NCBI GenBank assembly: GCA_964513625.1
Contig: CAZENH010000001.1
Span: forward strand, 241,642 to 305,641
Origin: an uncultured Myxococcales bacterium
GTDB taxonomy: Bacteria; Myxococcota; B64-G9
Direction: 5' to 3'
DNA: 64,000 nucleotides
The number at the start of each line of letters is the position of its first letter. The stretch's first letter is position 1. A model generated the notes under the pieces. That model saw only the letters and a program-made list of their open reading frames with translations. It did not search any database and was not told the DNA's origin. Made by a program: the position numbers and the translations under genes. Of the stretch, positions 37,081 to 64,000 are shown in pieces.

Positions 37081-37108
37081 AAGAAAGTGAATCGGCGGAG
37101 GGCTTTAC

Positions 37109-37507
37109 ATGTCCAAGGATAAATTTCCGAAGGCGGAGAAGAGCACACAGGCTTTTCTCACCAAGGACGAAAAGAAGCTGACTCGTCGAGACCTGCTCTC
37201 GACTTCCAGCGTGGCTCTGCTCGCGGCCGCCGGTACAGCGATGATCCCTGGTAAGGCTGGGGCATCGACTGTTTCAAAGGCGCTAAAGCTACGCAAGAAG
37301 GCGCCAGGCGTCGGTGGGATATCGGGCAAGGATCTGTCGCACTGCTCGCACGGCTCGCACGGGTCCCACGGCTCACACGGGTCCCACGGCTCTCACGGGT
37401 CCCACGGCTCACACGGGTCCCACGGCTCACACGGGTCCCACGGCTCACACGGTTCGCACGGGTCCCACGGTTCGCACGGATCTCACGGATCTCACGGGTC
37501 CTGGTAG
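37109..37507 (+). CDS. hxsA: His-Xaa-Ser repeat precursor protein (HxsA-like). It has a twin-arginine-type signal peptide followed by SHC(SHG)17SW.
   Basis: [52 protein letters not shown]|[24 protein letters not shown] then 18 consecutive Ser-His-Xaa triplets. Strong SD. It lies immediately downstream of two rSAM-SPASM genes. Confidence 0.8.
37337..37504 (+). repeat. perfect in-frame 9-nt (18-nt super-unit) tandem repeat TCN-CAC-GGN x18 encoding (Ser-His-Gly)n
   Basis: tcccacggctcacacggg is repeated with only synonymous third-position changes. Confidence 0.95.
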
Positions 37508-39311: not shown

Positions 39312-39315
39312 GATG

Positions 39316-46195: not shown

Positions 46196-47590
46196 ATGAG
46201 GACGGCAGGAAAACGAGTGATGCTTGTCTCCCCGCCCGGCCGTTGCACGCCGCATGGCTCATTTCATGCCGTGCCTCCGGAGGGGCTGGCCAGGCTGTCT
46301 GCTTGGTTAAGAAGAGAGGGATTCTACGTCGCGACGCTCGATGTACTGATCGAGGGCTACGATCTACGGCAAGTCGAGGGAAAGACCGTCAGATACGGTA
46401 TCTCCGCAGATCAAGCTGCTTCCAGAATAGCCGAGTGGTCACCGGATTTGATTGGATTCAGTTGTCCTTTTACCTGCACTGAACCGGACCTCATCCAGAT
46501 TGCGGGAGCCTGCAAGTCGCTGCTGCCTGATGCGCCTATCGTTTTTGGAGGAGCTCACGCGGCCGCCGATGCTCTGGCCTTGCTCGAGAAGGAACCGGCG
46601 GTGGATCTCGTTGCCCTGAGCGAAGGAGAACTGGCGCTTGCTTCCCTGCTTTCAGCTATGCAAGCTGGCGGCAACCCGAACGAAGTGGACGGTTTCGCCT
46701 CGCGAAAAAGTGATGGGGGCATTCAGAAGCGACCGCTGAAGCAGTTTCTCGATCTCAACAGGCTTCCCGAGCCCGCCTGGGATCTTTTTCCCATCGACGC
46801 TTATGCCAGGGCAAACGCTCCACACGTTGGAGCGGGTTTGGGCAGACGCTATCTGCCGACCACCTGGAGCCGTGGTTGCGTCAATGCCTGCACATACTGC
46901 CTGACACCACGTCTTTGGGGTAGAGGCAACCATCGAAGGCGCCCGATAGAGAATGTACTCGATGAGGCCAGGCATTTAAGATCCGAATACGAAATCGAGG
47001 AACTGCATGTCGAGGACGACTGTCTCTTAGCGGACAAGGCCTGGTTTCATGCGATCCTGGAGGCATTATCGAGTGAAAATCTCGGCCTGCTCCTTGATTT
47101 TCCCAACGGCCTGGATGTAACAAATCTAGACAGATCAACAGCAGTCAAGTTGGCGCGGGCGGGCACGATCAGAGCCTGCCTCGTGTTCGACGCCGGCGAG
47201 CCCGAAGCTCCCTTGAAATGGGTCGGGAAGCAAGTGTCACAGGAGCAAGGCAGCGAGGCTGTGGCCATGCTGCACGATGGGGGCATCTCGTTGCTTGGTT
47301 TTTTCATGCTTGGCTTTCCGGGACAGACCATCGACGATATGCGCGCTACCGTCGACTATGCGCTCTCACTGGATCTCGATGCATTGTCCATTTTTATCGC
47401 CACTCCATTTCCCGGAACACCCCTGCATACCTATTGCGAGCGCAAGGGCCTGCTGGTGCCAGATCGTGATCTCAGGGACTATCGTTTCTCCACTGGTCAT
47501 ATTCGCACTGCTGAATTCGGCCCCGAGGACACAGAGCGGTTTCGACACGAGGGTTGGCTAGAGTTTATGAATCGGAAGAGAGCTCCTTAG
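46196..47590 (+). CDS. B12-binding (class B) radical SAM protein
   Basis: RVMLVSPPG...ATLDVL B12-domain-like N-terminus. SRGCVNACTYCLTP. Alternative start 46220. Confidence 0.8.
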   Translation: MRTAGKRVMLVSPPGRCTPHGSFHAVPPEGLARLSAWLRREGFYVATLDVLIEGYDLRQVEGKTVRYGISADQAASRIAEWSPDLIGFSCPFTCTEPDLIQIAGACKSLLPDAPIVFGGAHAAADALALLEKEPAVDLVALSEGELALASLLSAMQAGGNPNEVDGFASRKSDGGIQKRPLKQFLDLNRLPEPAWDLFPIDAYARANAPHVGAGLGRRYLPTTWSRGCVNACTYCLTPRLWGRGNHRRRPIENVLDEARHLRSEYEIEELHVEDDCLLADKAWFHAILEALSSENLGLLLDFPNGLDVTNLDRSTAVKLARAGTIRACLVFDAGEPEAPLKWVGKQVSQEQGSEAVAMLHDGGISLLGFFMLGFPGQTIDDMRATVDYALSLDLDALSIFIATPFPGTPLHTYCERKGLLVPDRDLRDYRFSTGHIRTAEFGPEDTERFRHEGWLEFMNRKRAP

Positions 47591-49441: not shown

Positions 49442-50181
49442 GACCGTCTTCCCATCAGCATCATGAGATCCATGAAAATTGCAGCCACCTCGGCCGGGTG
49501 CGGCAGGTGGCCGAACGGGCCAAGTCCGATTTCGAAACGGGTTGTTCCACCCGGGCGCGTGAGGTGGGTAACGGGAATTTCGACCAGTTTGGCTCGTTTC
49601 GAAATGGCCCGCATGAGAATCTCCGCGTTGATCACGCCCGTTCGACATTGTAACGGAGTGGTTCCGATAACATCACTATGCACCAACTTGAAGGCACAGT
49701 CGAGATCCCTTACTCCGCGAATACCCAAAAGCCGCGTCGCCAGGCTGGAGTAAAGATTTCCGGCCAGCCTGCGCGCCAGCGGATCGCTCCGCACACGCCT
49801 GTACCCGACGATTAGGTCGGCCCCATTGGTTTCGGCGGCCAGCCTGGATAGTTCAGCATGATCGAATTGTCCGTCGGCGTCGGTGAGCAGCAGCCAGGGA
49901 TATCGTGCCGCGGCGATGCCCAGGGCAAGCGCGCGTCCATATCCGGGATCGTCAACGGGTTGCCAGATTGTGCGCACCTTGCTGTGACCAGCTGCCATTT
50001 CTCTTGCCACCTCGGGCGTTCCATCTTCGGCCGCCAGGCTTGAAACCAGTAGTATCTCCCAGTCCTCGGAAGCGCAGCCTGTCAAGGCTTCTTCCAGGTC
50101 TTCCGTAACACTCGAAAGGTCGCGAGCTTCCTCGAAACACGGCAATACCGCGCTGACCTGGATGTCATCTCTCTTCGACAT
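49438..50181 (-). CDS. GT2 polyprenyl-phosphate sugar synthase-like (DPM1/ArnC-like), second copy
   Basis: VSAVLPCFEEARDL, LLTDADGQFD, DCAFKLV. Confidence 0.7.
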   Translation of the reverse strand: MSKRDDIQVSAVLPCFEEARDLSSVTEDLEEALTGCASEDWEILLVSSLAAEDGTPEVAREMAAGHSKVRTIWQPVDDPGYGRALALGIAAARYPWLLLTDADGQFDHAELSRLAAETNGADLIVGYRRVRSDPLARRLAGNLYSSLATRLLGIRGVRDLDCAFKLVHSDVIGTTPLQCRTGVINAEILMRAISKRAKLVEIPVTHLTRPGGTTRFEIGLGPFGHLPHPAEVAAIFMDLMMLMGRRS

Positions 50182-51712
50182 TGATCAGCGGCTTGGATCT
50201 TGGGCGATACAGGAAGATGACGTCCGGACGGTCTGCAAAGGGCGCGAAGTAGTGTTCGATGCCCTTCTCGCTCAGATCTGCATGGATATTGCCGCCTTCC
50301 TCGGCAATAAAGAGCCTGCCTTCACCGGCGCGCCAGCGCTCGTTGGACATCTCATACACCAGGTCAACCAGTCTGCCAGATGCCTTGGCCGACAGATCGT
50401 TGAAGTATAGGTTGAGAAGCCATGCGTAAAGGGCTTCCGTTTTTTCGATGAACACCTTCTCATGTTCCGGCACCTTCAAGACGGTGGTGGTCGAGTAATC
50501 GGGAGGAACCAGTGAATCATCCATTAGCCCCTGGGACACGCAGGTACGGTACAGTTGAGTTCCTGGAAAAGGATACATGATGGACGGGCGAACCGAGTCG
50601 AAACCCAGATCGGCACATAGTCGAACAGTGGCCAGGATCTCTTCGCGAGTCTCAGTCGGCATGCCCAACATTACATATGCACGTGTGTTGACTCCAAGCT
50701 TGCGCAGCAATGCAACTGCCTTTCGTAATCGGTTTTCTGACAGTTCCCGGGCCAGGATTTGTTTACGAACTCTTTCTGATCCGCTTTCCACGCCGAATTT
50801 TACCATGTAGCACCCAGCCTCCGAGAGCAGGCGAGCCATTTTCTCGTCCAGGTGTCCGGCAATGGCGTTGCAGACGAAAGGTAGTCCAATCTTTTCGGTA
50901 TAGGCTGAGGAAAACTCAGTCAGCCACTCGTGACTGGATGCAAATCGATCGTCCCCGAAGTTGAAGGCCTTGAGAACATCGGGATATCTCTCCTTGAATA
51001 CCTCGAGTTCACCAATCACGTCCTCTACCGAGCGTTGCCGACAGTAGGCCGATGCACTGAGCTTGCCCGGTGTAAGTCTGCGCAGCGTATCGAGGATTGC
51101 CGCGTTGTGGCAATAGTTGCACTTCATCGGGCAGCCGCGGCCCACGATGGTCTCGGCGAAGCCGCGGTTGGCCCGGATGATGGCGGAATAGTCGATGCCG
51201 TCGAAGAATGGCCATGATTGTCTTGTAATATCGGGCAAGAAGGCCATGGGGTTTCGATGAATTATACCGTTTTCCTTGACCCAGAAGTTCGGCACCGAAA
51301 GATGGTCGTGACCGCCTTGCAGCGAAGAGACGAATCGCGCGAGCAGTCCATCTACTTCTCCCAGTCCGACGAAATCAACGGACGGGTGTGAAAGAACCGC
51401 CTCCGCGTTCAACGTCGTGTGCACGCCGCCGCAGAGCACCTTGCAGGTCGAATCCAGCCTCTTGACCAGCGAGGCCATCTTCATGGCCGCGGGATAGTGG
51501 TTTTGCCCGAAGGAAAGAGCGTGCAGTTCGAATGATCCCTTCTCGAAGAAGGCGCGCAAGCGTTCTTCTTCAAATGGCATCCCAACGGTTTCGTTCAGGT
51601 GAAGTAAGGTGACGTCATGCCCCGCCTCGGCCAATTCGCGGGCCAGCAGGGACGCCCCAACGCTCATACCGGGGGGCGCTGACAGATTGAACCAGTGAAA
51701 GCAGATCTTCAT
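50165..51712 (-). CDS. B12-binding radical SAM protein, paralog 1 of 3 in tandem
   Basis: MKICFHWFNLS...LLARELAEAGHDVTLLHLNE. GRGCPMKCNYCHN. Confidence 0.8.
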   Translation of the reverse strand: MKICFHWFNLSAPPGMSVGASLLARELAEAGHDVTLLHLNETVGMPFEEERLRAFFEKGSFELHALSFGQNHYPAAMKMASLVKRLDSTCKVLCGGVHTTLNAEAVLSHPSVDFVGLGEVDGLLARFVSSLQGGHDHLSVPNFWVKENGIIHRNPMAFLPDITRQSWPFFDGIDYSAIIRANRGFAETIVGRGCPMKCNYCHNAAILDTLRRLTPGKLSASAYCRQRSVEDVIGELEVFKERYPDVLKAFNFGDDRFASSHEWLTEFSSAYTEKIGLPFVCNAIAGHLDEKMARLLSEAGCYMVKFGVESGSERVRKQILARELSENRLRKAVALLRKLGVNTRAYVMLGMPTETREEILATVRLCADLGFDSVRPSIMYPFPGTQLYRTCVSQGLMDDSLVPPDYSTTTVLKVPEHEKVFIEKTEALYAWLLNLYFNDLSAKASGRLVDLVYEMSNERWRAGEGRLFIAEEGGNIHADLSEKGIEHYFAPFADRPDVIFLYRPRSKPLINVEER

Positions 51713-53265
51713 GACTCACCCGGTTCCATGTCTGCATTCGGAAGACCGACCGGTTCGCCTGTGTACAAGAAGGTCACGTCGGGTCTCTCGGGAAAGGGAT
51801 TGAAGTAGTGCTCGATCTCTTGGGTACGCAGCTTTCTGGTCAGAGCGAGCGAAGACGAGCGGATCCAGTTGCGTGTCTCTTGGGTTGCCCACTCGCTTTC
51901 CGGCATGGCCAAAGCTCGGCCAAGCAGAGGCCCGTATTCCCGGCCGCAGTTCTCGCTCAAATAGACGTTCTGCATCCAGGGGTGTAAAAGGTGTACTTTG
52001 TCGATCAGCAGGGCCATCTCTGCATTCCAGCGCAGAACGGACAGGTCGTCGTAATTTTCATACTCACGACCGGTCAGCAGAGAATCCCGAACACAACGCT
52101 CGTAGATCGGAGTTCCCTCGACCGGATAGAAGATACACAGCCGGGTGGAAGTCGCCTTCAGCCTGGCGGCGAAGCGGAAAGTGGACAGGATCTCGTCGCG
52201 GGTCTCGGTTGGATTGCCCACCATAAGGTAGATACGTGTCGGCACGTTGTGGGCCTTGAGGCGCGCAATGGCATGCTCGATCGTCGCCTGGTCGAAAGAC
52301 TTGCCAAGAATCGTGGTACGGATACGCTCGCTGCCGGATTCCACTCCGATCTTGGTAATTGCCCCAGAGCGCGCCAGCGCCGCAGCCAGTTCATCGTCGA
52401 CGCCGTCGACCAGGAGGTTGCAAGTGTAGGGCAAGTCGAAGCGCTCGGCGTATCCGCGGCAAAAGTTCAGCATCCACTCGCGGTCGAAATTGACCGCGTC
52501 GTCCGCCAGCGAGAACATCTTTACTTGTTCCCCGAAGCGCTCAAGGATCATCTGCATCTCACCGAAGAGATTTTCCAGGCCCCGCTTGCGGCAATAGGGC
52601 ATGCTCTTGCCGCCCGCGGGCAACCTGCACCTGTATGTGTCCCGCAGGACCTGGTTGAAACAGAAGCTGCATCGATTGGGACAGCCTCGTCCGGTAATCA
52701 CCTCGAACATCCCCCGGTTGAGCGCAAGTGAAGGACCGTAATCGACGTGATCCAGGTCGATCCAGGTTTGCTCGCGGATGTCGGGCAAAGGCGCCATTGA
52801 ATTGCGCCAGATGCGACCGGCGCGCTTTCCCCAGAATCCGGGAAGACTCGATACGTCCAGGCCCTGCTCAAGTCTGGCGACGAAGTCCGCCAGCAGACCG
52901 TCGACCTCGCCGATGAAGAGATAGTCGACTCCATCCAGCTCAAGGACCTGCTCTGGAAACAACGTTGGATGTACCCCGCCACACAAAAAGGGGACTTCGG
53001 GCAGCGAGTTTCTCAACTTCGGCAAGAGCGCCTCGACATGGGGAAGGTGATTACGCCCGAAAGACAGGGCGACGAGCCCGGGATCGAATTGACGGATACT
53101 ATCGATAATCTCATTCGGCTCGAAGGACATGCCTACCTGCTCGTTCAGGTGCAGGACCGATACCTGGTGGCCCGCCTCGCTCAGCTCCCGTGCTAGAAGT
53201 GACACGCCTATGTTCATCTTGGGCGTGCAGTTCAGGTTGAACCATACAAGCTGGACGCGCATCAC
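51709..53265 (-). CDS. B12-binding radical SAM protein, paralog 2 of 3
   Basis: MMRVQLVWFNLN...LLARELSEAGHQVSVLHLNE. GRGCPNRCSFCFN. ATGA overlap with paralog 1. Confidence 0.8.
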   Translation of the reverse strand: MMRVQLVWFNLNCTPKMNIGVSLLARELSEAGHQVSVLHLNEQVGMSFEPNEIIDSIRQFDPGLVALSFGRNHLPHVEALLPKLRNSLPEVPFLCGGVHPTLFPEQVLELDGVDYLFIGEVDGLLADFVARLEQGLDVSSLPGFWGKRAGRIWRNSMAPLPDIREQTWIDLDHVDYGPSLALNRGMFEVITGRGCPNRCSFCFNQVLRDTYRCRLPAGGKSMPYCRKRGLENLFGEMQMILERFGEQVKMFSLADDAVNFDREWMLNFCRGYAERFDLPYTCNLLVDGVDDELAAALARSGAITKIGVESGSERIRTTILGKSFDQATIEHAIARLKAHNVPTRIYLMVGNPTETRDEILSTFRFAARLKATSTRLCIFYPVEGTPIYERCVRDSLLTGREYENYDDLSVLRWNAEMALLIDKVHLLHPWMQNVYLSENCGREYGPLLGRALAMPESEWATQETRNWIRSSSLALTRKLRTQEIEHYFNPFPERPDVTFLYTGEPVGLPNADMEPGES

Positions 53266-53275
53266 AGCCGACCCT

Positions 53276-54835
53276 TCATGATTCCACCCGTTGGTCGTCG
53301 ACGTTGATCAGGTGGCGGCGCCTATCGATTCTCAGAAAGGCCCAGTCCGGACGCTCCGGGAAGGGCGCAAAATAGTGGGGTTGACCCTCGCGTGTCAGGC
53401 TCTTTTGAAGAACGCGGACGCGGTTGAAGAGCGTTTCTTTATACAGCGGATCATGCGCGCTACCCGAGGCGGGCGAGAGGGCCCAGGCGAGCAGATCGCT
53501 GGTCCGAGATCCAACCGGCTCGTCCAGGTGCTGGTTCACCAGCCATGGATACACAAGAAGAGTCTTGTCGAGGAAGACGCGCATTTCATCGGGCCATTTC
53601 AGAACCGACTGCTCGAGAAAACCGTACACGGCCTCAGTCTGCACAACAAGGCCGCTCCGGGCAAGCTCTGTGTATATCTCGGTGCCAGGGAAGGGGCAGA
53701 ACATGGCAACACGCACTGCATCAGGTCTAAGATCGGCGCAAAAATGGAAGGTAGCCAGTACATCGTCTTGCGTTTCGGTGGGAATGCCCACCATCAGGTA
53801 GGCCATGGTGTTGATTCCGTGCATCTTCAGGTGCCCGAAAGCTCTGCGTATGGTCACCTCGTCGAAGGGACGCCCCAGAACCTGCTTGCGGATCCGCCCC
53901 GGTGCGCACTCCACGCCCAGCTTGATCATGTTGCAGCCAGCCTTGTCGAGTAAAGCGGCGCTCTCGGCGTCTATTCGATCCGCCGTAGCGTTGGCAATGA
54001 ACGGCAAACCGATCTCGGCCGGGTAACGCTCGGCAAACTCGGCCAGCCAAGCCTTGTCGAACGCCAGGCGATCGTCACCGAACATGATCGCCTTTAGAGA
54101 CGGCGCGCGGGAGCGCATTTCCTTCAACTCGGTCAGCAGGTTGTCGATCGATCGCAGGCGGACATAGGGCCATGATGCAGGGCTGCCGCCCAGGCTTTCC
54201 CTGTAGCGTTTTACAAGGGCATGATTTTGGCAAAAGCGGCAATGGAAAGGGCAGCCACGGCCGGCGATGATCTCTCCGAAGCCGCGCTTGGCTATAACGA
54301 ACCGCTCGAAATCAATCGCTTCAAAAAGGGGCAGCGCTTGGTTCTCGATGCAGGGCAGGGGAGCCAGGTGGTTGCGATGCTCTCCACGTTCGTCCTTGAC
54401 CCAGAAGCCTCCGACCGAGGCCGTGTCGTCGCCCCGCTCCATACGGCTTACGAACTCTACGAACTGGCCCCCGTCCAACTCGCCAATCCCCACAGCATCG
54501 ACTTCCTCCCAGCCAAATATTTCATCCGGGTTGAGCGTGGCATGGATGCCGCCACAAACAATGGCGGCCTCGGGCAGGGCGGATCGCGCCTCGCTGACCA
54601 GTCGGTGGGCCAGGGCTGCGTGTGAGCTGAGAAACGAAAACGCTACCAGCCCGGGAGAAAGATTTGCCAGTTCGCAGGCCAAACGGCCGGGATCCGCGGG
54701 AAAGCCAAGATCCTCGTTGAGATGAAGAACATCGACCTCGTGGCCGGCCGCCTGCAACTCGCGCGCCAGGATCAATACTCCATGGCTGATTCCCGCCTGG
54801 CCGGCGGTGTTGATCCAAACAAAAGCGATTTTCAT
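53276..54835 (-). CDS. B12-binding radical SAM protein, paralog 3 of 3
   Basis: MKIAFVWINTAG...ILARELQAAGHEVDVLHLNE. GRGCPFHCRFCQNH. Confidence 0.8.
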   Translation of the reverse strand: MKIAFVWINTAGQAGISHGVLILARELQAAGHEVDVLHLNEDLGFPADPGRLACELANLSPGLVAFSFLSSHAALAHRLVSEARSALPEAAIVCGGIHATLNPDEIFGWEEVDAVGIGELDGGQFVEFVSRMERGDDTASVGGFWVKDERGEHRNHLAPLPCIENQALPLFEAIDFERFVIAKRGFGEIIAGRGCPFHCRFCQNHALVKRYRESLGGSPASWPYVRLRSIDNLLTELKEMRSRAPSLKAIMFGDDRLAFDKAWLAEFAERYPAEIGLPFIANATADRIDAESAALLDKAGCNMIKLGVECAPGRIRKQVLGRPFDEVTIRRAFGHLKMHGINTMAYLMVGIPTETQDDVLATFHFCADLRPDAVRVAMFCPFPGTEIYTELARSGLVVQTEAVYGFLEQSVLKWPDEMRVFLDKTLLVYPWLVNQHLDEPVGSRTSDLLAWALSPASGSAHDPLYKETLFNRVRVLQKSLTREGQPHYFAPFPERPDWAFLRIDRRRHLINVDDQRVES

Positions 54836-54964
54836 CTGCCCCTGCTTCGATGTTGTGGACGCATGTAATGTACTTTGACATCCATACTCTAGTCATGGCA
54901 AGCACCTTGCAATTAAATCAATTTTGACCAAGATTACCAGACATCGGTTGTCTAACATGCGGCT

Positions 54965-56419
54965 GTGTTTTCTTTAGGTGCGATCATGGGCAAGGAACTC
55001 ATGGATATTCTGATCCTCAGTCCTCCGGATTTTCTCTATCGACGGCAGGATGAGCCGGTACCCATGTATGGCGAGGAACGTAACATTCCCTACGGCGCGA
55101 TGACCGTGGCCAGTTATCTTGTGCACCACGGTTTGCGAGCCATGGTGGCCCCCCTGCGGGAGTACTACCAGGAAACCGATTCGTACACCTATTTTGATGA
55201 CGACACAGAAGAATCCGCTCAGGCATTCAGGAAGAAGACCGAACAGGTACTGGGTTATCTGCTCAAACGGCTGCACCCCAGAACGGTTGGATTGGCTGTC
55301 AACTACGCCATTCATCACCAGGCCACGGAAACTCTGGTTGATTTGCTTCGCGAGTTGGCGCCGGAGCTGCCGGTGCTGATCGGGGGTAATCACGCCACTC
55401 ATACAGCCGAACACTGGCTTTCCAGAAAGAATCCAGTAGACTTCGTAATCCTGGGCGAAGGGGAGCACACCTGCCTCAAACTGCTGAAATCAGGCTTGAG
55501 TCCGGGGGAAATCCCGGGAGTGGGCCTGCGCCGGGTGAATGGGTCGATCGAGATCAGGGACCGCCCCCGTCCGCTTTCTGAAGAACAGATATCCATCCCG
55601 GTCAACCTGTCATTGTTGGCTCTGCCGCGCTGGGCTCCCCTGACCACCCAGCGTCACTGGATCAGCTTGAGCCGGGGATGCAACTGGCGCTGCAATTTCT
55701 GCACGACACCGTCCATGTGGGGACGGCAGCGCTATCGCAATTCGGAGGCGGTAGCCGCCGAGATCGAGTTGGTAACGCGTACGGGTGTGAACGACATGTT
55801 CTTTGCCGAGGACATGCTGAATCCGACATCGCCTCGATTCAGAAACCAAGCCGATGTGCTACGCCAGTTTTCAGAATGCCATTTTTCCACCATGACCCGT
55901 CTGGACTTGATGGACAGGGCCGAGCCGAAGCGCGTACGTGCGGCAAACATCGAACACGTTTTTCTGGGCATGGAGAGTTTTTCCAAGGAACTGACCGATG
56001 CGATGGGAAAGAGAGTTCGACTTAAAAAGGGAAGAGATGTTGCTCTGGTGCTTGAAAGATTGAGGTCCGCCGGCCTGCAGGTGACGTTGTTCATGCTCGT
56101 CGGCCATCCCGAGAGCAGCTATAGAGCAGACATGCATTCGGCGGAAAGCTGCTTGCAGCTCGCCAGACGCGGTCTGGTGAACAACATCCTGCCGTTCTTT
56201 TTCATTCCCATCCCGGGGACGGCGGCCGCTGCTATGATGCGCCGGGGAAGATTCAAATTGCTGGAGCCAAAAATGAACCACTGGACGACCTGGCAGCCGG
56301 TCATCGAAATCCTGGGACCGTCGGGTGCAGTAACCTACTCTGCCGCAGAAATGCAACGGGTCATGAAAAGCTACCATGATATCTGGCGCAGTTGCCGACT
56401 GGGAGTTTTTGCAAGGTAA
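54965..56419 (+). CDS. B12-binding radical SAM protein, paralogous to 59895..61385
   Basis: ILILSPPDF...ERNIPYGAMTV...MVAPLREYYQ. SRGCNWRCNFCTT. The real start is probably 54986 or 55001 (AAGGAA SD). Confidence 0.8.
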   Translation: MFSLGAIMGKELMDILILSPPDFLYRRQDEPVPMYGEERNIPYGAMTVASYLVHHGLRAMVAPLREYYQETDSYTYFDDDTEESAQAFRKKTEQVLGYLLKRLHPRTVGLAVNYAIHHQATETLVDLLRELAPELPVLIGGNHATHTAEHWLSRKNPVDFVILGEGEHTCLKLLKSGLSPGEIPGVGLRRVNGSIEIRDRPRPLSEEQISIPVNLSLLALPRWAPLTTQRHWISLSRGCNWRCNFCTTPSMWGRQRYRNSEAVAAEIELVTRTGVNDMFFAEDMLNPTSPRFRNQADVLRQFSECHFSTMTRLDLMDRAEPKRVRAANIEHVFLGMESFSKELTDAMGKRVRLKKGRDVALVLERLRSAGLQVTLFMLVGHPESSYRADMHSAESCLQLARRGLVNNILPFFFIPIPGTAAAAMMRRGRFKLLEPKMNHWTTWQPVIEILGPSGAVTYSAAEMQRVMKSYHDIWRSCRLGVFAR

Positions 56420-56471: not shown

Positions 56472-56501
56472 TTGACAGTCGGCGCGTGTGCCCGATATTA
56501 T
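56472..56501 (+). promoter_or_regulatory. candidate promoter TTGACA-18-TATTAT upstream of the gmhA-like gene
   Basis: Read directly. A GGAGG SD at 56516-56520 precedes GTG 56531. Confidence 0.3.
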
Positions 56502-56530
56502 CCATAATCAAAACCCGGAGGATTTCTGAA

Positions 56531-57133
56531 GTGATAGAGCAGTTTGCAAGTGATTTCCTAGCTCGGATAAGCAATGCGCTGGCCGAGGTTCAACTAGCTG
56601 ATATCAACGACATCGTTCAGACGATTATTCGGGCTTTTCGGGACGGAAACGCGGTTTATATCATGGGTAACGGCGGGAGTTCCGCGACCGCGTCTCACCT
56701 GGCCTGCGATCTTTGCTATGCCGAATGCAGGACAAACAGTTTTAGCGTGGCATGCCTGAGCGACAATGTGCCACTGCTCACGGCCCTAGGAAACGATCTT
56801 GGATATTACGATGTATTCAGTGGCCAACTAGATCGACTGCTCGGTGCCGGTGATGTCGTGATCGTTCTTTCTGTTTCGGGAGATTCGGAGAATATTCTGA
56901 GAGCGGCGACAACCGCGCGCAAACACGGCGCAGCGTCTATCGGCTTTCTGGGGTCGAACGGCGGGAGGGCACGAGCATTGCTCGACCACAGCATAGTGCT
57001 GACAAGTGCAGATTTCCCGGTTGTGGAAAGTGTGCACTGTGTGCTGATGCAAATGGTGGCAAACGTGTTCCGACGTTGCATCGTGGATAGGCCCGATTAT
57101 TTTCCCGGCGGCGATCTCGATGCTCAAAATTGA
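56531..57133 (+). CDS. gmhA: SIS-domain sedoheptulose-7-phosphate isomerase-like (GmhA-like)
   Basis: VYIMGNGGSSATASHLACDL and GDVVIVLSVSGDSENILRAA are SIS signatures. I chose GTG 56531 (SD 9 nt upstream) over the track's 56486 start, which would run through the promoter. Confidence 0.7.
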   Translation: MIEQFASDFLARISNALAEVQLADINDIVQTIIRAFRDGNAVYIMGNGGSSATASHLACDLCYAECRTNSFSVACLSDNVPLLTALGNDLGYYDVFSGQLDRLLGAGDVVIVLSVSGDSENILRAATTARKHGAASIGFLGSNGGRARALLDHSIVLTSADFPVVESVHCVLMQMVANVFRRCIVDRPDYFPGGDLDAQN

Positions 57134-57149: not shown

Positions 57150-58820
57150 GTGCCGGTGGTCCTGGGACTCCACGCTTTCGGTCATGAGGCCGGAGCTTGC
57201 CTGGTGGCGCCCGATGGACTCCGGGCGCTAAGCGAGGAACGCCTGAGCCGCGTCAAGTATGACGGTGCATTTCCGAAAAAAGCCATTGAATGGGTGCTTG
57301 AGGCGTCTGGAGTAGGCGATCTCGAAAAAGTAGACCTAGTAGTCTATGATTTGCTCGAGCGAGCAGGTCCCAGGGTTATAGAGAATTTGAGGCAACTGGG
57401 ATACCTGGGAGAGATAAGGGCTCTTCGACACCACGAGGCTCACGCCGCCTCTGCTTTTTTTGTAAGCCCGTTTGAAGAAGCCACGGTGTTTACTATTGAT
57501 GCCGGCGGAACTCGCGAGGGCGAGGAGGGGCCCGGAGTTCAACCTTCAGCCCGACAACTGGATCACCCGATGCGACGCGAGGTTCAGGCCGTCTTCTACG
57601 GTCAGGGGCACGATATACGGACGCTAAGACGAACTGTCGTGGCTCCTCCGTGGACAATAAACCCCGGCGTTTTCTATGGACTTGCCTCTGAGTTTCTGGG
57701 TTTCGGTCAGATGGGAGCTGGAAAAGTCATGGGCTTATCCGCCTTCGGCGGAAAGGACGTTCATTTCAGAAAACCGTTTTTCGAAGATATCGCTGAAGAT
57801 CCTCTGGCACGCTGTCCCACGAAAGACCCTCTCCAGGAGTCCGTACTGCATTCATATCTTCCCACTGTTTTCGGCGGAACACCGCCGAGGAAAAGGCACG
57901 AACAAATCGACGCCCGGTACCGGGACATCGCAGCTTACGTTCAGGCCGAATGTCAGCGGGCAGTTGTTTCTTTTCTTCGAAATCTGGCATCTTCTGCGCC
58001 TTCTACAAATCTTTGCATGGCCGGAGGATTCGCACTTAATGCCATCAGCAATACAGCGATTCTCGGACAAACGCCGTTTAAGAGTCTTTTCGTCCAACCG
58101 GCGGCAACCGACGCCGGGATCCCACTCGGCTGTGCCCTGTGGGGTTACCATGTCGTTCTGGGACAGGAACGCCGATTCGAAATGCGTACCGCCGATCTTG
58201 GGGGCGCATATACGATCCACGAGATCCAGAGAGCCATCGGCGAGCGTTCTGGAATAATCGTCAGGCGCATCGATGCCATTGAGCACAAGGCGGCCGAGGA
58301 ACTGGCTGCAGGAAAAATCATCGGCTGGTTGCAGGGGCGCAGCGAGTTTGGACCCAGAGCGCTCGGCCACCGCAGCATTTTCGCCGATCCGCGCAATGTT
58401 CGATCAGTGTCCAGGCTCAATGAAGAGATAAAATTCCGGGAATCGTTCCGGCCCTACGCACCGATGGTATTGGAGGAGGCGGCAAAGAAATACTTTGATC
58501 TTCCGGAAAGCAGTCCATTTATGTTGCTGATTGCCCCGGTTAGGCAGGAGTGGCGCTCGAAGCTTCCCGCTGTCACCCATGTGGACGGGACGGCCCGGAT
58601 TCAAACAGTCTCCGAGGGAGACGAACCCGGGCTGTTCAGATTGCTGAAAGAGTTCGAACGACAATCCGGATGCCCCGTGCTGCTGAATACGAGTTTCAAC
58701 CGGGCAGGGGAACCCATCATCGAGAGCCCAACCGATGCCTTGGACGTTTTCCTGGCAACGGATTTGGAAGCGTTGGTTATGGAGGACTTTTGGATAGAAA
58801 AAGAGCACGTATACGAATAG
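57150..58820 (+). CDS. NodU/CmcH-family O-carbamoyltransferase
   Basis: N-terminal VVLGLHAFGHEAGACLVAPDG (ASKHA/Carbam_trans_N-like). C-terminal domain with PVLLNTSFNRAGEPI. ~556 aa. GAGGTGA SD. Confidence 0.8.
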   Translation: MPVVLGLHAFGHEAGACLVAPDGLRALSEERLSRVKYDGAFPKKAIEWVLEASGVGDLEKVDLVVYDLLERAGPRVIENLRQLGYLGEIRALRHHEAHAASAFFVSPFEEATVFTIDAGGTREGEEGPGVQPSARQLDHPMRREVQAVFYGQGHDIRTLRRTVVAPPWTINPGVFYGLASEFLGFGQMGAGKVMGLSAFGGKDVHFRKPFFEDIAEDPLARCPTKDPLQESVLHSYLPTVFGGTPPRKRHEQIDARYRDIAAYVQAECQRAVVSFLRNLASSAPSTNLCMAGGFALNAISNTAILGQTPFKSLFVQPAATDAGIPLGCALWGYHVVLGQERRFEMRTADLGGAYTIHEIQRAIGERSGIIVRRIDAIEHKAAEELAAGKIIGWLQGRSEFGPRALGHRSIFADPRNVRSVSRLNEEIKFRESFRPYAPMVLEEAAKKYFDLPESSPFMLLIAPVRQEWRSKLPAVTHVDGTARIQTVSEGDEPGLFRLLKEFERQSGCPVLLNTSFNRAGEPIIESPTDALDVFLATDLEALVMEDFWIEKEHVYE

Positions 58821-58827
58821 AATTGCG

Positions 58828-59958
58828 TTGTTTGGCTATTGGGAGAGTTGCAGCATGCGTGTTCTGTTAGTCGGAGGCATACCCATGCGGCTCCATCGGG
58901 GGCCGGTAGACTGGGCTGGACACCACTTCGAGGCTATCAGGCACGTTTTTGATCGCATCGTAGTTATGGAGCACATGGAAGCATGCGAAAGGGTCACGCT
59001 GGATCAGAAGGCTCTGAGTGACTTTGTCGAATCCACTCGCGACTACGATGCCGTATTTTGCGAGACGCCAGAAGCCTTACTGCTATTTCAGGAATGGAAG
59101 AAACGGGGTGATTCTCCCATTGCACTGCTCGCCCTGGAGGTACACGGGCTTACACGGGTGGCGGCAATGCGCGAGTGGTATCTCGAACACGAAGGCCATG
59201 ACCCCTGGCCGGGGATGGCTCGAGCTCCCTGGATCGCCTGGATAGCGGCCAGTTCGGTCCAGGGCGATATCCTGCTTAAAGCCGGAGTACCCCCTGAGAG
59301 CATCAGGCGTATCAATGCGGGCACTATTGCATATTCCACCTTCTTGCCGAATGCAGATGCCTTACTCGACGGTGGCACACAAGTGGACGGAGAAGCTGCG
59401 TTCGGATTACCGGCTGATGGGGTTGTCGTGCCTGGATCGGGTCGGCGTGACCGGGAGTGTAGCCTCAAGGCTGCCAGGGCGTTGCCCGGTCTTCCCTTCG
59501 CGATCGTTGACGAACAGGCAGCCGGTCAACGCCGGCGTCTGGCCGGGACCGGGCTGCTTGAACTTCCCAACGTGCGCTGGCTGAAGGCACTTGCGCTGGA
59601 GAGATATATCGCTCTGATCAAGCGTGCCAGACTGGTGGTCGTGGCTCTACAACCCGGCACCGGTGACGGCGGGCACACGACCGTCGCGTTGGCCCACAGG
59701 CTGGGAGCGACTGTTATTTGCAGCGATGTGCCGGGAATCGCAGATTATGTTGAAGATGGATACAACGCAAGGCTCGTGAAGGCTGCAGATCCCGACAGTT
59801 TGGCCGAAGCGATAAGTAATTTATGGAAGGATAGCGATGAGCGCAACCGCCTCGCACAAAACGGACGCCTTACCGAGGTTGCGCGCGCCCGGGAGTGCCA
59901 GCACGAATTCTTGCAAACACTGGAATCAGTGGCGGCGGTTCTAAGAAAGGAATTTTAG
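58828..59958 (+). CDS. GT4-like glycosyltransferase (low similarity). Probable start at MRVLLVGG, 58855.
   Basis: GT-B-like C-terminal half (...GATVICSDVPGIADYVEDGYNARLV...ERNRLAQNGR...). Confidence 0.45.
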   Translation: MFGYWESCSMRVLLVGGIPMRLHRGPVDWAGHHFEAIRHVFDRIVVMEHMEACERVTLDQKALSDFVESTRDYDAVFCETPEALLLFQEWKKRGDSPIALLALEVHGLTRVAAMREWYLEHEGHDPWPGMARAPWIAWIAASSVQGDILLKAGVPPESIRRINAGTIAYSTFLPNADALLDGGTQVDGEAAFGLPADGVVVPGSGRRDRECSLKAARALPGLPFAIVDEQAAGQRRRLAGTGLLELPNVRWLKALALERYIALIKRARLVVVALQPGTGDGGHTTVALAHRLGATVICSDVPGIADYVEDGYNARLVKAADPDSLAEAISNLWKDSDERNRLAQNGRLTEVARARECQHEFLQTLESVAAVLRKEF

Positions 59959-61385
59959 TTGTGGAGCTACTTGTTCTCACGCCCCCCGATTTTATTTTCA
60001 GAAAAGCAGACGAGGTTACGCCCACTTATAGTGAAGAACGCAACATTCCCTACGGTGCACTGACTTTAGTGAGCTTTCTAAGAGAGCATGGAATTCGGGC
60101 CATGGTGGCTCCCCTGCGGGAGTTCTATCAGGAGACTGGTTGTTTCACGCATTTTGATGAAGGTACGCCTGAATCGAGGAAAGTCTTCGAGCAAAAGACT
60201 TCGCAGATCCTGGGCAACTTGCTGCGTCGCTTGCATCCTGGGGCAATAGGTTTGTCGGTAAACTTTGCCATTCACCAATTGGCTGCGGAAATCATTATCG
60301 ATCAGATCCGTGCACTGGCTCCAAATCTACCGGTGATCATCGGTGGAAATCATGCAACCCACACAGCAGAACACTGGCTGACACGTGAGAACCCGGTGGA
60401 TTTTGTTGTCCTCGGTGAAGGTGAGCAGACTTGTCTGAAACTGCTTCAGTCGGAATTCAAGCCGGGCGATCTTTCCGGATTAGCCAGGCGACGTGATGAT
60501 GGAAGCGTAGAAATAGGTGAACGACCGAAACGCCTCACTGTGGCGCAAATCTCGGTGCCGCTGAACCTTGAACTCGTCGCTTTACCGCGCTGGGCTCCTC
60601 TGAGCAGTCAGAAACACTGGGTTGGACTTAGTCGGGGATGTAACTGGAACTGTGCCTTTTGCACTAGTCATTCGATGTGGGGCCGGCAGCGTTACCGAAA
60701 ACCGGAAGCTGTTGCCTCCGAGATCGATCGCGTCGTTACAGCGGGTGCAAAACGAATCATTTTCAGCGACGACATGCTCAACCCGGGTTCACGCAGGTTC
60801 CAGGGTCTGCTTGAGGTGCTGCAGGGTTTTCGCGATTGCAGCTTCTCCACCATGATCCGCATGGACCTGTTGGAACGCACAGACCTCAAGGCGCTTGCTG
60901 GAGCCAATATTGATTACGTATACCTCGGTGTGGAGAGTTTCTCCGTGCCGGTACTTGAAGCGATGAACAAGAAGGCCCGCCTTGTCGATAAGAGTGCCGT
61001 CGAATCACTGATGAAGAGAATCAAGGCTGCTGGCATGAAGACAATCATGTTCATGTTGATCGGCCACCCGGGCAGCAACTTCGAGCAGGACATGAACTCA
61101 GCCCGCTTTTGCCGCAAGCTGGTCGACCTGGGCTTGGTATCCGTGGTGTTTCCTGCCCACATCGCTCCTTTTCCGGGCACGGCGATAGCGGCCATGGAGC
61201 AGAAAGGAGCCTTCAGAGTAGTCGAAACACGGATGAATCGCTGGACTCTCTGGCGTCCGAATATCGAGCTTCTGGATTCGTCCGGTCGAGTGAATTATTC
61301 GGCCGAGGAAATGCAGACAGTCTTCGATGAGTATCTCGATTGCTGGTACGAACATGGGCTCGGAAATTCCGGTGTAACAGGGTAG
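59895..61385 (+). CDS. B12-binding radical SAM protein, paralog of 54965..56419
   Basis: LVLTPPDF...ERNIPYGALTL...MVAPLREFYQ. SRGCNWNCAFCTS. The likely real start is GTG 59961, just after the upstream TAG. Confidence 0.8.
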   Translation: MPARILANTGISGGGSKKGILVVELLVLTPPDFIFRKADEVTPTYSEERNIPYGALTLVSFLREHGIRAMVAPLREFYQETGCFTHFDEGTPESRKVFEQKTSQILGNLLRRLHPGAIGLSVNFAIHQLAAEIIIDQIRALAPNLPVIIGGNHATHTAEHWLTRENPVDFVVLGEGEQTCLKLLQSEFKPGDLSGLARRRDDGSVEIGERPKRLTVAQISVPLNLELVALPRWAPLSSQKHWVGLSRGCNWNCAFCTSHSMWGRQRYRKPEAVASEIDRVVTAGAKRIIFSDDMLNPGSRRFQGLLEVLQGFRDCSFSTMIRMDLLERTDLKALAGANIDYVYLGVESFSVPVLEAMNKKARLVDKSAVESLMKRIKAAGMKTIMFMLIGHPGSNFEQDMNSARFCRKLVDLGLVSVVFPAHIAPFPGTAIAAMEQKGAFRVVETRMNRWTLWRPNIELLDSSGRVNYSAEEMQTVFDEYLDCWYEHGLGNSGVTG

Positions 61386-61405: not shown

Positions 61406-62716
61406 ATGATTGCTAGAAGCCAACTGCAAAACGATTTGGAACCTATTCTACTGGAGTCGGGCCTGCCCCCGGCGGGAGTCGAAATCCTGATCAATTTGGC
61501 CCTTGGCTCGGCCCGCATGGAAGATCTCAAAAACAATGCCAAGTTGCTGCCGTCGGAAGATCTGGGTGAATACGTTTCGATGCTGGAAAAAAGAAAATTG
61601 ATCAGTTCAAGCGTGGACGACGATGGACGGTTTAAGCTGGTCGAATCAGAAGAGCTGTTCGCAAGACTGCCGGGTCCGGCCGGGGCTCGACTTGTGTTGT
61701 TGGCCACCCAGGCACAGCGAGAGTTCGTTGGAGGCATGACGATCAACCCGGCCATGCCGATAGGTGACACACGACTCTTGAGTCCTTTCGAAGCATACAG
61801 AAATACACTTGATGCTCGCCTGCCGCAGGTGGAAATCAAGGTACAGACTTCGTGCAATATCGGCTGCCTCTATTGCTTCATCCGCAAAGATCCAAGAGAT
61901 ACGCTCGACACGGTAGTGGCTCGGACCGGGATAGAACGCGCCAGAAGCGGAGGCGTCGAGCGTCTGATCCTGACAGGGGGCGAACCAACGTTGCGCAAGG
62001 ACTTGCCAGAACTAATACGGCATGCCCGCGAACGTGGTTTCGTAGATGTGCAGTTGTTTACAAATGGTCTGATTTTTGCGTACGCCGATCGGCTGGACGC
62101 CTGCATACGGGCCGGACTGACTTCAGTGGTTCTGCATGTATCTTCCGTCGACCGGAATATATATGCTCGTCTGACGGGCAGAGACCACCTGGAGACGGTC
62201 AAGCAAGCGATGCACAACCTGGCTCGCTACCCGCAACTCGAGATGGCGATAGTAACAGTCATTAACCGTCTCAACATACATAACTTGGCAGAGACCATCG
62301 ATTTCTTCCGGGACTGGCAGGAAAAAACCCACTTTGCATGGTTTGCCAATGAGATTCCATTTTGCTGCGTGTATTCCCGTGCCTGGGATAACAGGGACAA
62401 GGTTCTCATGCCGATAGAACAAGCATTGGGAGTCCTTGAAGCAATTGTTAGAGAGCACGACGGCGAGACATGGCCCTTGCTATTTTATGGAATTCCATAT
62501 TGTCTGTTGCCGGGGCTGGAGAGCAATAGTTATGATCTCTACTTCACCATGGCTCGTCAGTTACTACCCGAAAAAAACTTTGACTACACTTTTCTAGATG
62601 CCATGTTTCTCAAGTCTGATAAATGTCGAAGGTGCAGGCACGAACCGTATTGCCTGGGGATCTCGCGCGGTTACGCTCGTCTGTACGGCAGCGATATCTT
62701 ACAGCCCGTCATTTGA
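61406..62716 (+). CDS. radical SAM protein with a ~140-aa N-terminal non-catalytic domain and a C-terminal Cys-rich tail
   Basis: QTSCNIGCLYCFI. C-terminal CCVYSRAW...CLLPG...KCRRCRHEPYC. Confidence 0.7.
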   Translation: MIARSQLQNDLEPILLESGLPPAGVEILINLALGSARMEDLKNNAKLLPSEDLGEYVSMLEKRKLISSSVDDDGRFKLVESEELFARLPGPAGARLVLLATQAQREFVGGMTINPAMPIGDTRLLSPFEAYRNTLDARLPQVEIKVQTSCNIGCLYCFIRKDPRDTLDTVVARTGIERARSGGVERLILTGGEPTLRKDLPELIRHARERGFVDVQLFTNGLIFAYADRLDACIRAGLTSVVLHVSSVDRNIYARLTGRDHLETVKQAMHNLARYPQLEMAIVTVINRLNIHNLAETIDFFRDWQEKTHFAWFANEIPFCCVYSRAWDNRDKVLMPIEQALGVLEAIVREHDGETWPLLFYGIPYCLLPGLESNSYDLYFTMARQLLPEKNFDYTFLDAMFLKSDKCRRCRHEPYCLGISRGYARLYGSDILQPVI

Positions 62717-64000
62717 GCGTGAATCAGGTTCGCCTGCACAGAGCCAGCGGGCGGCACTGAGCATGTCTGTAAAGCTCCATACCGGCCGGGACGGAAAGCG
62801 CTCGTCGCGGCAGCCCGCGCCGGTCTCCAGGCCGATCGCGGCCAGCCCTGCGTTGTGGGCCAGTTGCATATCCACCGAACGATCTCCGATGACAACCGTC
62901 CTCCAGGCCGGCACTCCCAGGTCGGCCAGGGCCGAGCGCGCCATCCCGACCGCCGGCTTTCGGCACTTGCACGGACCACGCAGGTCGGAATCACCTTCCG
63001 GATGATCTGTCTCCGGGTGGTGCGGGCAGAAATAAATCCTGTCGAGATGCGCGTCTTCGAGCGCAAGCAATTCATCCAGACGCTCGTGGATCAAGCCCAA
63101 CTCGTGCAAAGAACACAATCCCCTGGCCACTACGGGCTGATTCGTAGTCAAGGCGACCTTGATACCCGCTTGGTTCAGCAGACGAAGACCCTTCGCGGCC
63201 CCGGGAAGCAGGCTCAACTTGTCGACTTCGTGCAGCAGGCCTACGTCCTCGATCAGCGTACCGTCACGATCCAACAGCACCATCTCTGCCCTGAGCTTTG
63301 TCTTTCCGCTCGCAACGTCATGAACAATTGAGTTTAACCGTGCGGGTGTGCCTATGTCCCGGACGTATTCAGATGACCTATAGCCGAAGATCGGTTCGCG
63401 CGCTTCGATCATGGCGGGCAGTATCTCGCCAAATAAATCACTTGGACGCCCGCGCGGAACACGTCGCAGAATATCTTTGTGAAACACCGCTACGGCCGAG
63501 TTGGTCAGCGTACTGTCCGTTACTACTTCGCCCTTGTGCCCGCCATTTCTGCCGATCCAGCCGATGACTCGGTTTCCATCGTCCAAGGACAGCCGATCGC
63601 TGTCCTGCGGGTGGCTGGAGCGATGCACCAGCAAGGTGGCCAGGCCCAGGTTGGCCTCGGCCGCCTGTGAGAGGCGCTTCCAGTCGAGACAGGTAAAGAT
63701 ATCTCCGAATACCAACATGAATCGTTCAGCTAACCTGTCGGCGACACCTTGCAAAGCCCCGGCGGTACCACGCGGCTGAGGCTCGATAATTGTCTCGACA
63801 TCCATGCCGGGAGGGGCGAGATGGCGTGCCTCGGCGGACACCTGCTCGCCCCCCAGGCCGGCAAGCAGCAAAGCCTGCTTGGCGCCCGCCGTGTGCAACT
63901 CGTTCAGCAGATGCGCAAGCAAGGGCCGTCCATCAATGGGTGTCAGCACCTTGGGCAGATCGCCTGTTTTAGGCTTAAGGCGCAGCCCTGGTCCACCGCA
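62699..64000 (-). CDS. bifunctional sugar-1-phosphate nucleotidyltransferase (HddC-like) and HAD-IIIA heptose bisphosphate phosphatase (GmhB-like). The N-terminus lies beyond the window end.
   Basis: The frame continues upstream of the track's GTG start as CGGPGLRLKPKTGDLPKVLTPIDGRPLL (G-x-G-x-R-L-x-P-x-T nucleotidyltransferase motif). C-terminal half has VLLDRDGTLIEDV and FCPHHPE (GmhB/HisB-N HAD motifs). Confidence 0.7.
   Translation of the reverse strand, partial: CGGPGLRLKPKTGDLPKVLTPIDGRPLLAHLLNELHTAGAKQALLLAGLGGEQVSAEARHLAPPGMDVETIIEPQPRGTAGALQGVADRLAERFMLVFGDIFTCLDWKRLSQAAEANLGLATLLVHRSSHPQDSDRLSLDDGNRVIGWIGRNGGHKGEVVTDSTLTNSAVAVFHKDILRRVPRGRPSDLFGEILPAMIEAREPIFGYRSSEYVRDIGTPARLNSIVHDVASGKTKLRAEMVLLDRDGTLIEDVGLLHEVDKLSLLPGAAKGLRLLNQAGIKVALTTNQPVVARGLCSLHELGLIHERLDELLALEDAHLDRIYFCPHHPETDHPEGDSDLRGPCKCRKPAVGMARSALADLGVPAWRTVVIGDRSVDMQLAHNAGLAAIGLETGAGCRDERFPSRPVWSFTDMLSAARWLCAGEPDSRSNDGL

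Follow-up and report, generated by a model that had tools for sequence, protein, structure and literature searches.

Class B radical S-adenosylmethionine (SAM) enzymes, which join a B12-binding domain to a radical SAM domain, are among the least characterized large enzyme groups. Most of their sequence clusters have no assigned function, and the sugar C-methylases GenK, GenD1, MoeK5, and Fms7 belong to this class (PMC12931638). Gene clusters with several class B enzymes are also known, namely those of BotRMT1-3, PctJ/N/O, PoyB/C, and GenK/GenD1 (PMC12931638). Here, we describe three tandem class B paralogues (rS1, rS2, and rS3) in a 64,000-nt stretch of DNA, hereafter the window, from an uncultured Myxococcales bacterium (contig CAZENH010000001.1). 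The trio belongs to a conserved cassette that also holds a fourth class B gene and a set of sugar genes, and whose probable role is to modify an unusual sugar of the cell surface. That class B enzymes can C-methylate sugars is already established; the enzyme family described here is uncharacterized, although the kind of enzyme is known. What is unusual is the conserved four-paralogue cassette, together with its consistent link to lipid-carrier glycan assembly.

GenK, GenD1, MoeK5, and Fms7, compared by description only, resemble the trio in domain architecture, in their glycosyltransferase and nucleotide-sugar context, and in the presence of several class B genes per cluster (PMC12931638). They belong, however, to aminoglycoside or phosphoglycolipid antibiotic clusters, whereas four co-operonic paralogues are found here in a cell-surface glycan and lipid-carrier context. 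TokK (7kdx) and CysS (9n1b) are the best matches for the N-terminal cobalamin domain of the trio, share its class I fold, and offer a precedent for successive methylations of one scaffold. They differ in that one enzyme iterates, in having a Trp under the corrin at a position that aligns with Asn or Ser in the trio, in their weakly similar radical SAM cores, and in their substrates, which are carbapenam and pantetheinylated carbapenam, not sugars. AprD4, the radical SAM 1,2-diol dehydratase of apramycin biosynthesis (6fd2), has no cobalamin, ~20% identity to the rS family, and an N-terminal domain that is not alignable with theirs.

Two further kinds of system resemble the genes around the trio. 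The ArnC/ArnT and GtrB/GtrC systems have, like the window, a DPM1-like glycosyltransferase family 2 (GT2) enzyme, which would make a polyprenyl-phosphate sugar, and a GT-C glycosyltransferase (a candidate in the window) in one locus; in the window these are 26 kb apart, and no flippase was identified. We know of no radical SAM enzyme in either system, and full-text literature searches found none there. Such searches also returned no precedent for a class B radical SAM enzyme in heptose, exopolysaccharide, O-antigen, S-layer glycan, or undecaprenyl-phosphate contexts. The GDP-6-deoxy-heptose and GDP-D-rhamnose pathways (GmhA, GmhB, HddC, DdahA/DmhA, and Rmd) resemble the window in its GmhA-like SIS protein, its GmhB-like HAD-nucleotidyltransferase, and the first of its two short-chain dehydrogenase/reductases (SDR1 and SDR2), but the window matches all fall below the equivalog cutoffs, and no heptose kinase was found there.

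The three paralogues are intact and have class B architecture. An earlier note on this DNA, made from the sequence alone, had placed three tandem class B genes here, and the open reading frames (ORFs) lie exactly where it put them. The B12-binding domain that the note had presumed is detected by hidden Markov model in every copy (PF02310; rS1 55, rS2 67, and rS3 45 bits; gathering cutoff 32.1), followed by the radical SAM domain (PF04055; 66, 51, and 77 bits, respectively). Pairwise identity is 38-40% over the full length (BLAST 377-387 bits), far beyond chance. The CxxxCxxC motif begins at residue 194 or 195, and its cysteines (C194/C198/C201 in rS3 numbering) are invariant in 74 homologues. 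The AlphaFold2 (AF2) model of rS3 adopts the class I B12-radical SAM fold, with the B12 domain preceding the radical SAM barrel. Shared N-terminal motifs had been reported as well: W[FI]N, (L/I)LAREL..AGH.V..LHLNE, and GRGCPxxCx(F/Y)C are all present, although the last had been given with F throughout, and rS3 has Y.

The trio is also coupled to sugar genes on the same strand. The junctions agree with the note: rS1 and rS2 are separated by a 10-nt gap, rS2 and rS3 share an ATGA overlap, and the run continues into a DPM1-like GT2 and two extended SDRs. The rS3/GT2 junction is a 17-nt overlap (or ATGA if an alternative start is used), GT2/SDR1 is again an ATGA overlap, and SDR1/SDR2 is a 7-nt gap. 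The start codon of rS2 is GTG, with an ATG 3 nt further on. Scans for sigma-70 promoters and terminators performed no better than on shuffled sequence, and no promoter was found in the 129-bp region upstream of rS1. This divergent intergenic region does contain a sigma-54-like -24/-12 element, TGGCAAGCACCTTGCA (1 mismatch; 54896-54911, plus strand), with the class B gene at 54965 starting ~55 nt downstream of it; such matches are not above chance across the window. A sigma-54 activator is encoded at 13069-15087.

rS1, rS2, and rS3 are three old, nonredundant orthogroups under purifying selection. Other metagenome-assembled genomes (MAGs) hold separate orthologues of each, at 54-84% identity, while cross-paralogue identity is 37-42%. 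Among the loci of relatives, labeled L005-L030, and the individual homologues, rS1 orthologues are found at 54-83% identity (L006-L010 and P0027/29/31), rS2 orthologues at 63-81% (P0023/P0026 and L005-L009), and rS3 orthologues at 46-83% (P0002-P0019). In a neighbor-joining tree, the three form separate sister clades together with a fourth group (P0020-22), and single-copy outgroups fall outside. Ratios of nonsynonymous to synonymous substitution (dN/dS), computed against the closest relative (L006), where dS is unsaturated, are 0.14 for rS1, 0.11 for rS2, 0.11 for rS3, and 0.13 for the fourth class B gene of the cassette (46196-47590), and no orthologue has an internal stop. Whereas 81 alignment columns are identical across all three orthogroups, another 30 are conserved within each orthogroup and differ between them; these include columns 185-186, 310-311, and 202, which lies directly after the cluster motif and reads Q, F, or H. 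Only the tandem arrangement speaks for the copies being redundant recent duplicates, or decaying ones, that have no separate roles. Against it stand the retention of three orthogroups across Myxococcota, Bradymonadales, and Polyangia MAGs, the low dN/dS without stops, and the group-specific residues. The earlier note had raised pseudogenization or redundancy in relatives as a possible objection; neither is seen, and we rejected redundancy and decay on the basis of the orthologue identities, the tree, the dN/dS values, and the group-specific columns, which leave this explanation hardly credible.

The clade is small and phylogenetically restricted. When 1.84 billion cluster representatives were scanned in full with HMMER, 1,614 matched at E <= 1e-30, and only ~16 of these exceeded 300 bits and aligned end-to-end; thus, the clade is small. 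Its C-terminal ~100 residues are not common to the bulk of class B enzymes. The exact rS3 protein is present on metagenomic contigs, and the nearest named relatives, found by a genome scan with the alignment of rS3 orthologues (A3), are MAGs assigned to Myxococcota, "Deltaproteobacteria", Bradymonadales, and Polyangia. The searches turned up no cultured organism, and the clade is restricted to uncultured lineages related to Myxococcota.

The trio is part of a larger conserved cassette (Table 1). The earlier note's "triplicated" holds insofar as there are three nonredundant copies; the set is really four or more, as the convergent class B gene at 46196-47590 belongs to the same cassette. Its orthologue lies between rS1 and rS2 in L007/L030 and L008, and directly before rS2 in L009/L029 and L026. 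L030 carries a compact version, one overlapping nine-gene run (GT1, SIS, rS1, B12-radical SAM, rS2, rS3, GT2, SDR1, and SDR2) followed by unrelated aromatic amino-acid genes, and the same cassette genes also occur in L005-L009, L026, and L029. The minimal cassette is a GmhA-like SIS, four class B radical SAM enzymes, GT2, and two SDRs. Translational coupling of the trio to GT2 and the SDRs is conserved in L005, L006, and L007/L030. The sugar context claimed in the note is supported by the GDP-sugar-type SDRs, the ArnC/DPM1-like GT2, and the GmhA-like SIS, all within this cassette. Recurring alongside it are a carbamoyltransferase, two GT1/GT4 enzymes, a sugar-1-phosphate nucleotidyltransferase, a fusion of a nucleotidyltransferase with a GmhB-like phosphatase, a SPASM radical SAM enzyme, and another radical SAM enzyme.

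Table 1. Positions of the class B radical SAM genes and associated features in the window
Feature	Position	Strand	Basis and remarks
GT-C-fold candidate membrane glycosyltransferase (GT39/ArnT/PMT-like), 678 aa, at least 9 transmembrane helices	21720-23756	-	Homologues and AF2 model
Second pair: DPM1/PpgS/AglJ-like GT2 (27119-27898) and class B radical SAM (25749-27122), ATGA overlap	25749-27898	-	Best match of radical SAM HpnJ, 168 bits, below cutoff
HxsD	33416-33883	+	TIGR03976, 56 bits (cutoff 50)
HxsB	34109-35590	+	TIGR03978, 520 bits (cutoff 370)
Radical SAM in HxsC position	35615-37054	+	Gene order
Small ORF, 132 aa, with Tat-like RRDLL signal, ending in (HGS)x17-W	37109-37507	+	Sequence; outside the 150-aa ORF scan
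Fourth class B radical SAM, 464 aa	46196-47590	+ (convergent here)	Pfam; synteny in L007/L030, L008, L009/L029, L026
SDR2, extended SDR epimerase/reductase, 286 aa	47587-48447	-	Matches MoeE5 6kv9 and GDP-6-deoxy-D-mannose reductase 6x3b
SDR1, extended SDR of the GDP-sugar 4,6-dehydratase/4-reductase clade, 328 aa	48455-49441	-	Best matches Rmd 2pk3 and 7us5
DPM1/ArnC-like GT2, 247 aa, DAD motif, no transmembrane helix	49438-50181	-	PF00535, 58 bits; PDB sequence matches
rS3, class B radical SAM paralogue 3, 515 aa	50165-51712	-	ORF, Pfam; AF2 model (pLDDT 94.7)
rS2, class B radical SAM paralogue 2, 518 aa from GTG (517 aa from ATG 53262)	51709-53265	-	ORF, Pfam
rS1, class B radical SAM paralogue 1, 519 aa	53276-54835	-	ORF, Pfam; B12-binding domain residues 8-119, radical SAM domain 189-366, CxxxCxxC at residue 195
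Divergently transcribed class B radical SAM, 55% identical to 59895-61385	54965-56419	+	Pfam, identity
GmhA-like SIS sugar-phosphate isomerase, adjoining rS1 in relatives	56486-57133	+	gmhA 98 bits, below cutoff of 209
NodU/CmcH-type carbamoyltransferase, co-conserved in relatives	57150-58820	+	Library match, synteny
Sugar-1-phosphate nucleotidyltransferase fused to GmhB-like HAD-IIIA phosphatase	62699-63949	-	TIGR01656 and TIGR01662 domain cutoffs passed; GmhB 128 bits, below cutoff of 178

The sugar genes point to a GDP-activated 6-deoxy sugar. SDR1, which starts at 49441 (MKVLVTG) and not at the upstream ATG of the longest ORF, is closest to the GDP-6-deoxy-lyxo-4-hexulose reductase Rmd (2pk3, 199 bits), the GDP-heptose 4,6-dehydratase DdahA (7us5, 162 bits), and GDP-mannose dehydratases. 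It keeps the S-x-E and YxxxK motifs (GSGEEYG and PYAVSK align with T133-x-E135 and YxxxK of GMD) and scores 137 bits against NCBIfam gmd, below the cutoff of 415. From these similarities, SDR1, SDR2, the GmhA-like SIS, and the GmhB-like HAD protein would together supply a GDP-6-deoxy-hexose or a GDP-6-deoxy-heptose. An exact-sequence look-up of the HAD-nucleotidyltransferase protein gave no match. GT2, which contains the sequence TDADGQ (DxD = DAD), matches ArnC (9bhc, 1e-10) and Dol-P-Man synthase (5mlz, 5e-7) in the PDB, with all NCBIfam equivalogs below cutoff; it is a probable polyprenyl-phosphate glycosyltransferase, translationally coupled to rS3. A GT2 without a transmembrane helix may be a peripheral membrane enzyme, like human DPM1.

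Class B genes and lipid-carrier enzymes are associated repeatedly. We find class B radical SAM genes paired with enzymes of the type that load sugars onto polyprenyl phosphate in three independent settings: rS3 with GT2, the second pair at 25749-27898, and outgroup homologues with Bac_transf. The outgroup homologues, 33-36% identical, lie directly beside a Bac_transf initiating phosphoglycosyltransferase in polysaccharide clusters of the Wzx/Wzy or Poly_export type (L011 and L022-L025), which places the wider family in a glycan context. Wzz and a flippase (MurJ or Polysacc_synt) occur together in the L022 and L024 clusters, with a Wzy polymerase in addition in L024; L011, from Nitrospina, has Bac_transf, a Poly_export protein, and a sulfotransferase. 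In the window itself, the protein encoded at 21720-23756 is a candidate GT-C enzyme. It has no Pfam, NCBIfam, or PDB sequence match of its own; 10 of its 15 homologues (34-82% identity) match PF13231 (PMT_2), and some are named GT39 in their sources. The top 37 Foldseek matches of its AF2 model (pLDDT 82.7) are all GT-C proteins, including PglB, ALG9, STT3, ArnT, and Pmt4, with TM-scores of only 0.3-0.43. GT-C enzymes take lipid-carrier-linked sugars as donors.

The N-terminal domain of the trio has features of a cobalamin site. The earlier note had proposed looking for DxHxxG-like residues. The His position is occupied by Met16 in rS3, Met17 in rS2, and Ile16 in rS1, and of this motif only the final Gly is retained. 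DxHxxG is not a valid criterion for class B, because the solved enzymes bind cobalamin base-off, without a histidine ligand (PMC12931638). The SxL and GG elements are kept: the domain profile aligns with the B12 domain of an adenosylcobalamin mutase (2yxb), with S67 on the SxL serine and G95-G96 on GG, and among the 74 homologues S67 is nearly invariant and both glycines are invariant. Furthermore, TokK (69 bits), CysS (63), OxsB (58), TsrM, and 4q37 all match the family profile through their cobalamin domains. AprD4 and ArsL have a Rossmann-like domain without cobalamin, so that the domain alone is no proof of binding (PMC12931638); AprD4, however, aligns with the family profile only from position 157 onward. 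This favors a real cobalamin domain over an AprD4-like relic, and rS1-3 are predicted to use cobalamin.

Family models and fold comparison leave several chemistries in view. The best NCBIfam scores are HpnJ at 111 bits (rS3; cutoff 578), BchE at 90 (rS1), ApyD at 77 (rS2), and AprD4 at 65; the AprD4 family model NF033070 gives 46-65 bits against a cutoff of 500, over the C-terminal part only. Fold comparison gave about equal figures for AprD4 (27.6), MgmA (26.9), TsrM (26.3), CysS (25.8), and TokK (20.9). As AprD4 stands alongside true methylases, fold comparison does not assign the chemistry. In a published similarity network, each group with a characterized member includes C-methyltransferases, and a 2026 review states that nonmethylating class B members are indistinguishable from methylases by sequence (PMC12931638). 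Hopanoid (HpnA/B/J-like) and ladderane-lipid assignments were considered and rejected: the models score well under their cutoffs, and the genes of these pathways are missing.

The best explanation, to which we give an even chance as a whole, is that rS1-3 and the class B enzyme encoded at 46196-47590 each carry out a different radical tailoring step on one sugar of a lipid-carrier pathway. The tailoring of a lipid-carrier-linked 6-deoxy-hexose or heptose is suggested because the outgroups adjoin initiating phosphoglycosyltransferases in Wzx/Wzy clusters, and because a candidate GT-C enzyme is encoded in the window. In such a pathway, GDP-6-deoxy-hexose or GDP-6-deoxy-heptose would be the joint product of the two SDRs, the GmhA-like isomerase, and the GmhB-like phosphatase/nucleotidyltransferase, and the DPM1/ArnC-like GT2 would load this sugar onto polyprenyl phosphate. 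The most likely substrate of the four class B enzymes would be the sugar once linked to the lipid, or else the GDP-sugar immediately ahead of loading; they would add C-methyl (alkyl) groups, either one after another or at different positions. The GT-C enzyme would then pass the finished sugar to an extracytoplasmic acceptor. Distinct glycan-tailoring roles for the paralogues are likely. That the paralogues methylate falls a little short of an even chance, and a lipid-linked substrate is a tentative suggestion.

Several observations weigh against this explanation. The radical methylations or alkylations proposed in the earlier note remain a proposal: no curated subfamily model is reached, AprD4 is an equal structural neighbor, and the residue aligned with Trp76 of TokK is polar. 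Every class B NCBIfam cutoff is missed by rS1-3 (HpnJ, BchE, HpnR, PhpK, TsrM, MgmA, BzaD, KedN5, ApyD, Sden_1168, and the ladderane-lipid model). The lower-axial Trp76 of TokK aligns with Asn71 in rS2 and rS3 or Ser71 in rS1, followed by a conserved His72, in what is a loop alignment only. In methylating class B enzymes, the position below the corrin is hydrophobic (Trp76 in TokK, Leu in Mmp10 and DUF512 proteins), and a polar face has been linked with enzymes that do not perform radical methylation, a correlation that rests on few structures (PMC12931638). We regard the polar residue predicted here as a mild caution. No cobalamin gene was found in the window, and a search of it with Rfam at gathering thresholds was empty, including for a cobalamin riboswitch. 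That neither a heptose kinase nor a flippase was found in the window counts in the same direction, as do the 26 kb between the GT-C gene and the cassette, the conservation of that gene beside the cassette, seen in one close relative only, and the fact that every relative is uncultured and without a known product. Some rS3-like genes also lie in clusters without sugar genes (L027 and L028). The L028 case (17081-19558; 49% identity) adjoins an MMPL/sterol-sensing-type transporter, a setting which hints that some clade members may act on lipids.

The main alternative is that the paralogues are AprD4-like, cobalamin-independent dehydratases. Each would remove a hydroxyl from a vicinal diol of the sugar and so leave ketones that the SDRs would reduce, in the manner of AprD3 with AprD4; the product would be a polydeoxy sugar rather than a C-methylated one. 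The fold figures are compatible with this chemistry, but the N-terminal domain resembles those of cobalamin enzymes rather than that of AprD4, and we consider the alternative unlikely. A cobalamin-dependent but nonmethylating radical chemistry in the style of HpnJ, OxsB, or BchE (ring contraction, cyclization, or C-C rearrangement) would agree with the best NCBIfam matches of rS3 (HpnJ) and rS1 (BchE), though both are far below cutoff. The Asn at the lower-axial position likewise resembles the polar lower face of OxsB (Asn186 plus water), and nonmethylating members are not separable from methylases by sequence (PMC12931638). These scores, however, reach only the level of the superfamily, four separate rearrangements of a single sugar would have no precedent, and the prior for a methylase is higher, which makes this alternative quite unlikely.

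The substrate could instead be a peptide or protein, similar to a ribosomally synthesized and posttranslationally modified peptide (RiPP) and exemplified by the nearby His-Xaa-Ser repeat peptide, or a lipid, with the sugar genes mere neighbors. A complete His-Xaa-Ser (Hxs) system lies 13 kb away, the best NCBIfam match of rS2, at 77 bits, is the RiPP enzyme ApyD, and the sugar-free clusters L027 and L028, the latter with its MMPL transporter, fit as well. Three features argue otherwise: the coupling of the trio to GT2 and the SDRs is kept in L005, L006, and L007/L030; the L030 cassette is bounded by aromatic amino-acid genes, without peptide or Hxs genes; and the outgroup homologues reside in Wzx/Wzy or Poly_export polysaccharide clusters. 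We thus judge a peptide or lipid substrate very unlikely, and a glycan-tailoring role remains the explanation that we prefer.

The cassette lies within a radical-SAM-rich part of the window: of the 15 radical SAM genes located between 23.6 and 62.7 kb, seven also encode a B12-binding domain. We rejected this 40-kb stretch as a single pathway, because the Hxs peptide system (28-39.4 kb) is distinct from the sugar cluster (40.4-64 kb) and because the minimal cassette stands alone in L030. The genes at 33416-37507 (plus strand) make up a complete Hxs system, which includes a small ORF with a signal resembling those of the twin-arginine translocation (Tat) pathway. Two further HxsC-like radical SAM genes flank it, at 28030-29679 (plus strand) and 37512-39425 (minus strand), one of which is fused to a methyltransferase. 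The 749-aa product of the gene at 40458-42707 (plus strand) contains a pair of radical SAM domains and two CxxxCxxC motifs, at residues 228 and 477; its first half is class-B-like, with AprD4 and Sden_1168 matches, and its second half is HxsC4/MoaA-like. Two large secreted repeat proteins are also encoded: one at 15157-18528 (plus strand), with 13 MopE-type Cys-rich metal-binding motifs, and one of 1218 aa inside the radical-SAM-rich stretch at 29719-33375 (plus strand), with choice-of-anchor D and ASH/HYDIN Ig-like domains. Either could be a target of glycosylation.

Further class B genes accompany the carbamoyltransferase. In the window, the class B pair at 54965-56419 and 59895-61385 (plus strand) brackets the SIS, carbamoyltransferase, and GT1 genes. 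In L021 (GCA_040752295.1), ferredoxin, carbamoyltransferase, and radical SAM domains are fused in one 1688-aa protein (11622-16688). Beside it lie a homologue of rS1-3 with 43% identity and four more class B radical SAM genes, an arrangement that suggests a functional link between carbamoylation and radical SAM steps in such clusters. Peptidase_U32 genes recur in related clusters (L021 17514-18962 and L029 13018-14052) and are absent from the window. This family includes O2-independent hydroxylases such as UbiU/V.

This clade and its outgroups are consistently tied to glycan assembly genes. If the cassette does C-alkylate a carrier-linked 6-deoxy sugar, radical SAM sugar tailoring would be extended from antibiotic pathways to cell-surface glycans, and the family would be a supply of regiospecific C-H alkylating catalysts. 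In its compact nine-gene form, as found in L030, the cassette is tractable for heterologous expression. A bolder, improbable extension is that a polyprenyl-phosphate sugar is alkylated or rearranged by the four cobalamin radical SAM enzymes and then placed by the GT39-like GT-C enzyme on a secreted target, possibly the Ser-rich, Tat-exported His-Xaa-Ser repeat peptide. If true, radical SAM chemistry would be seen for the first time on lipid-carrier-linked sugars, and an orphan Hxs system would be tied to glycosylation.

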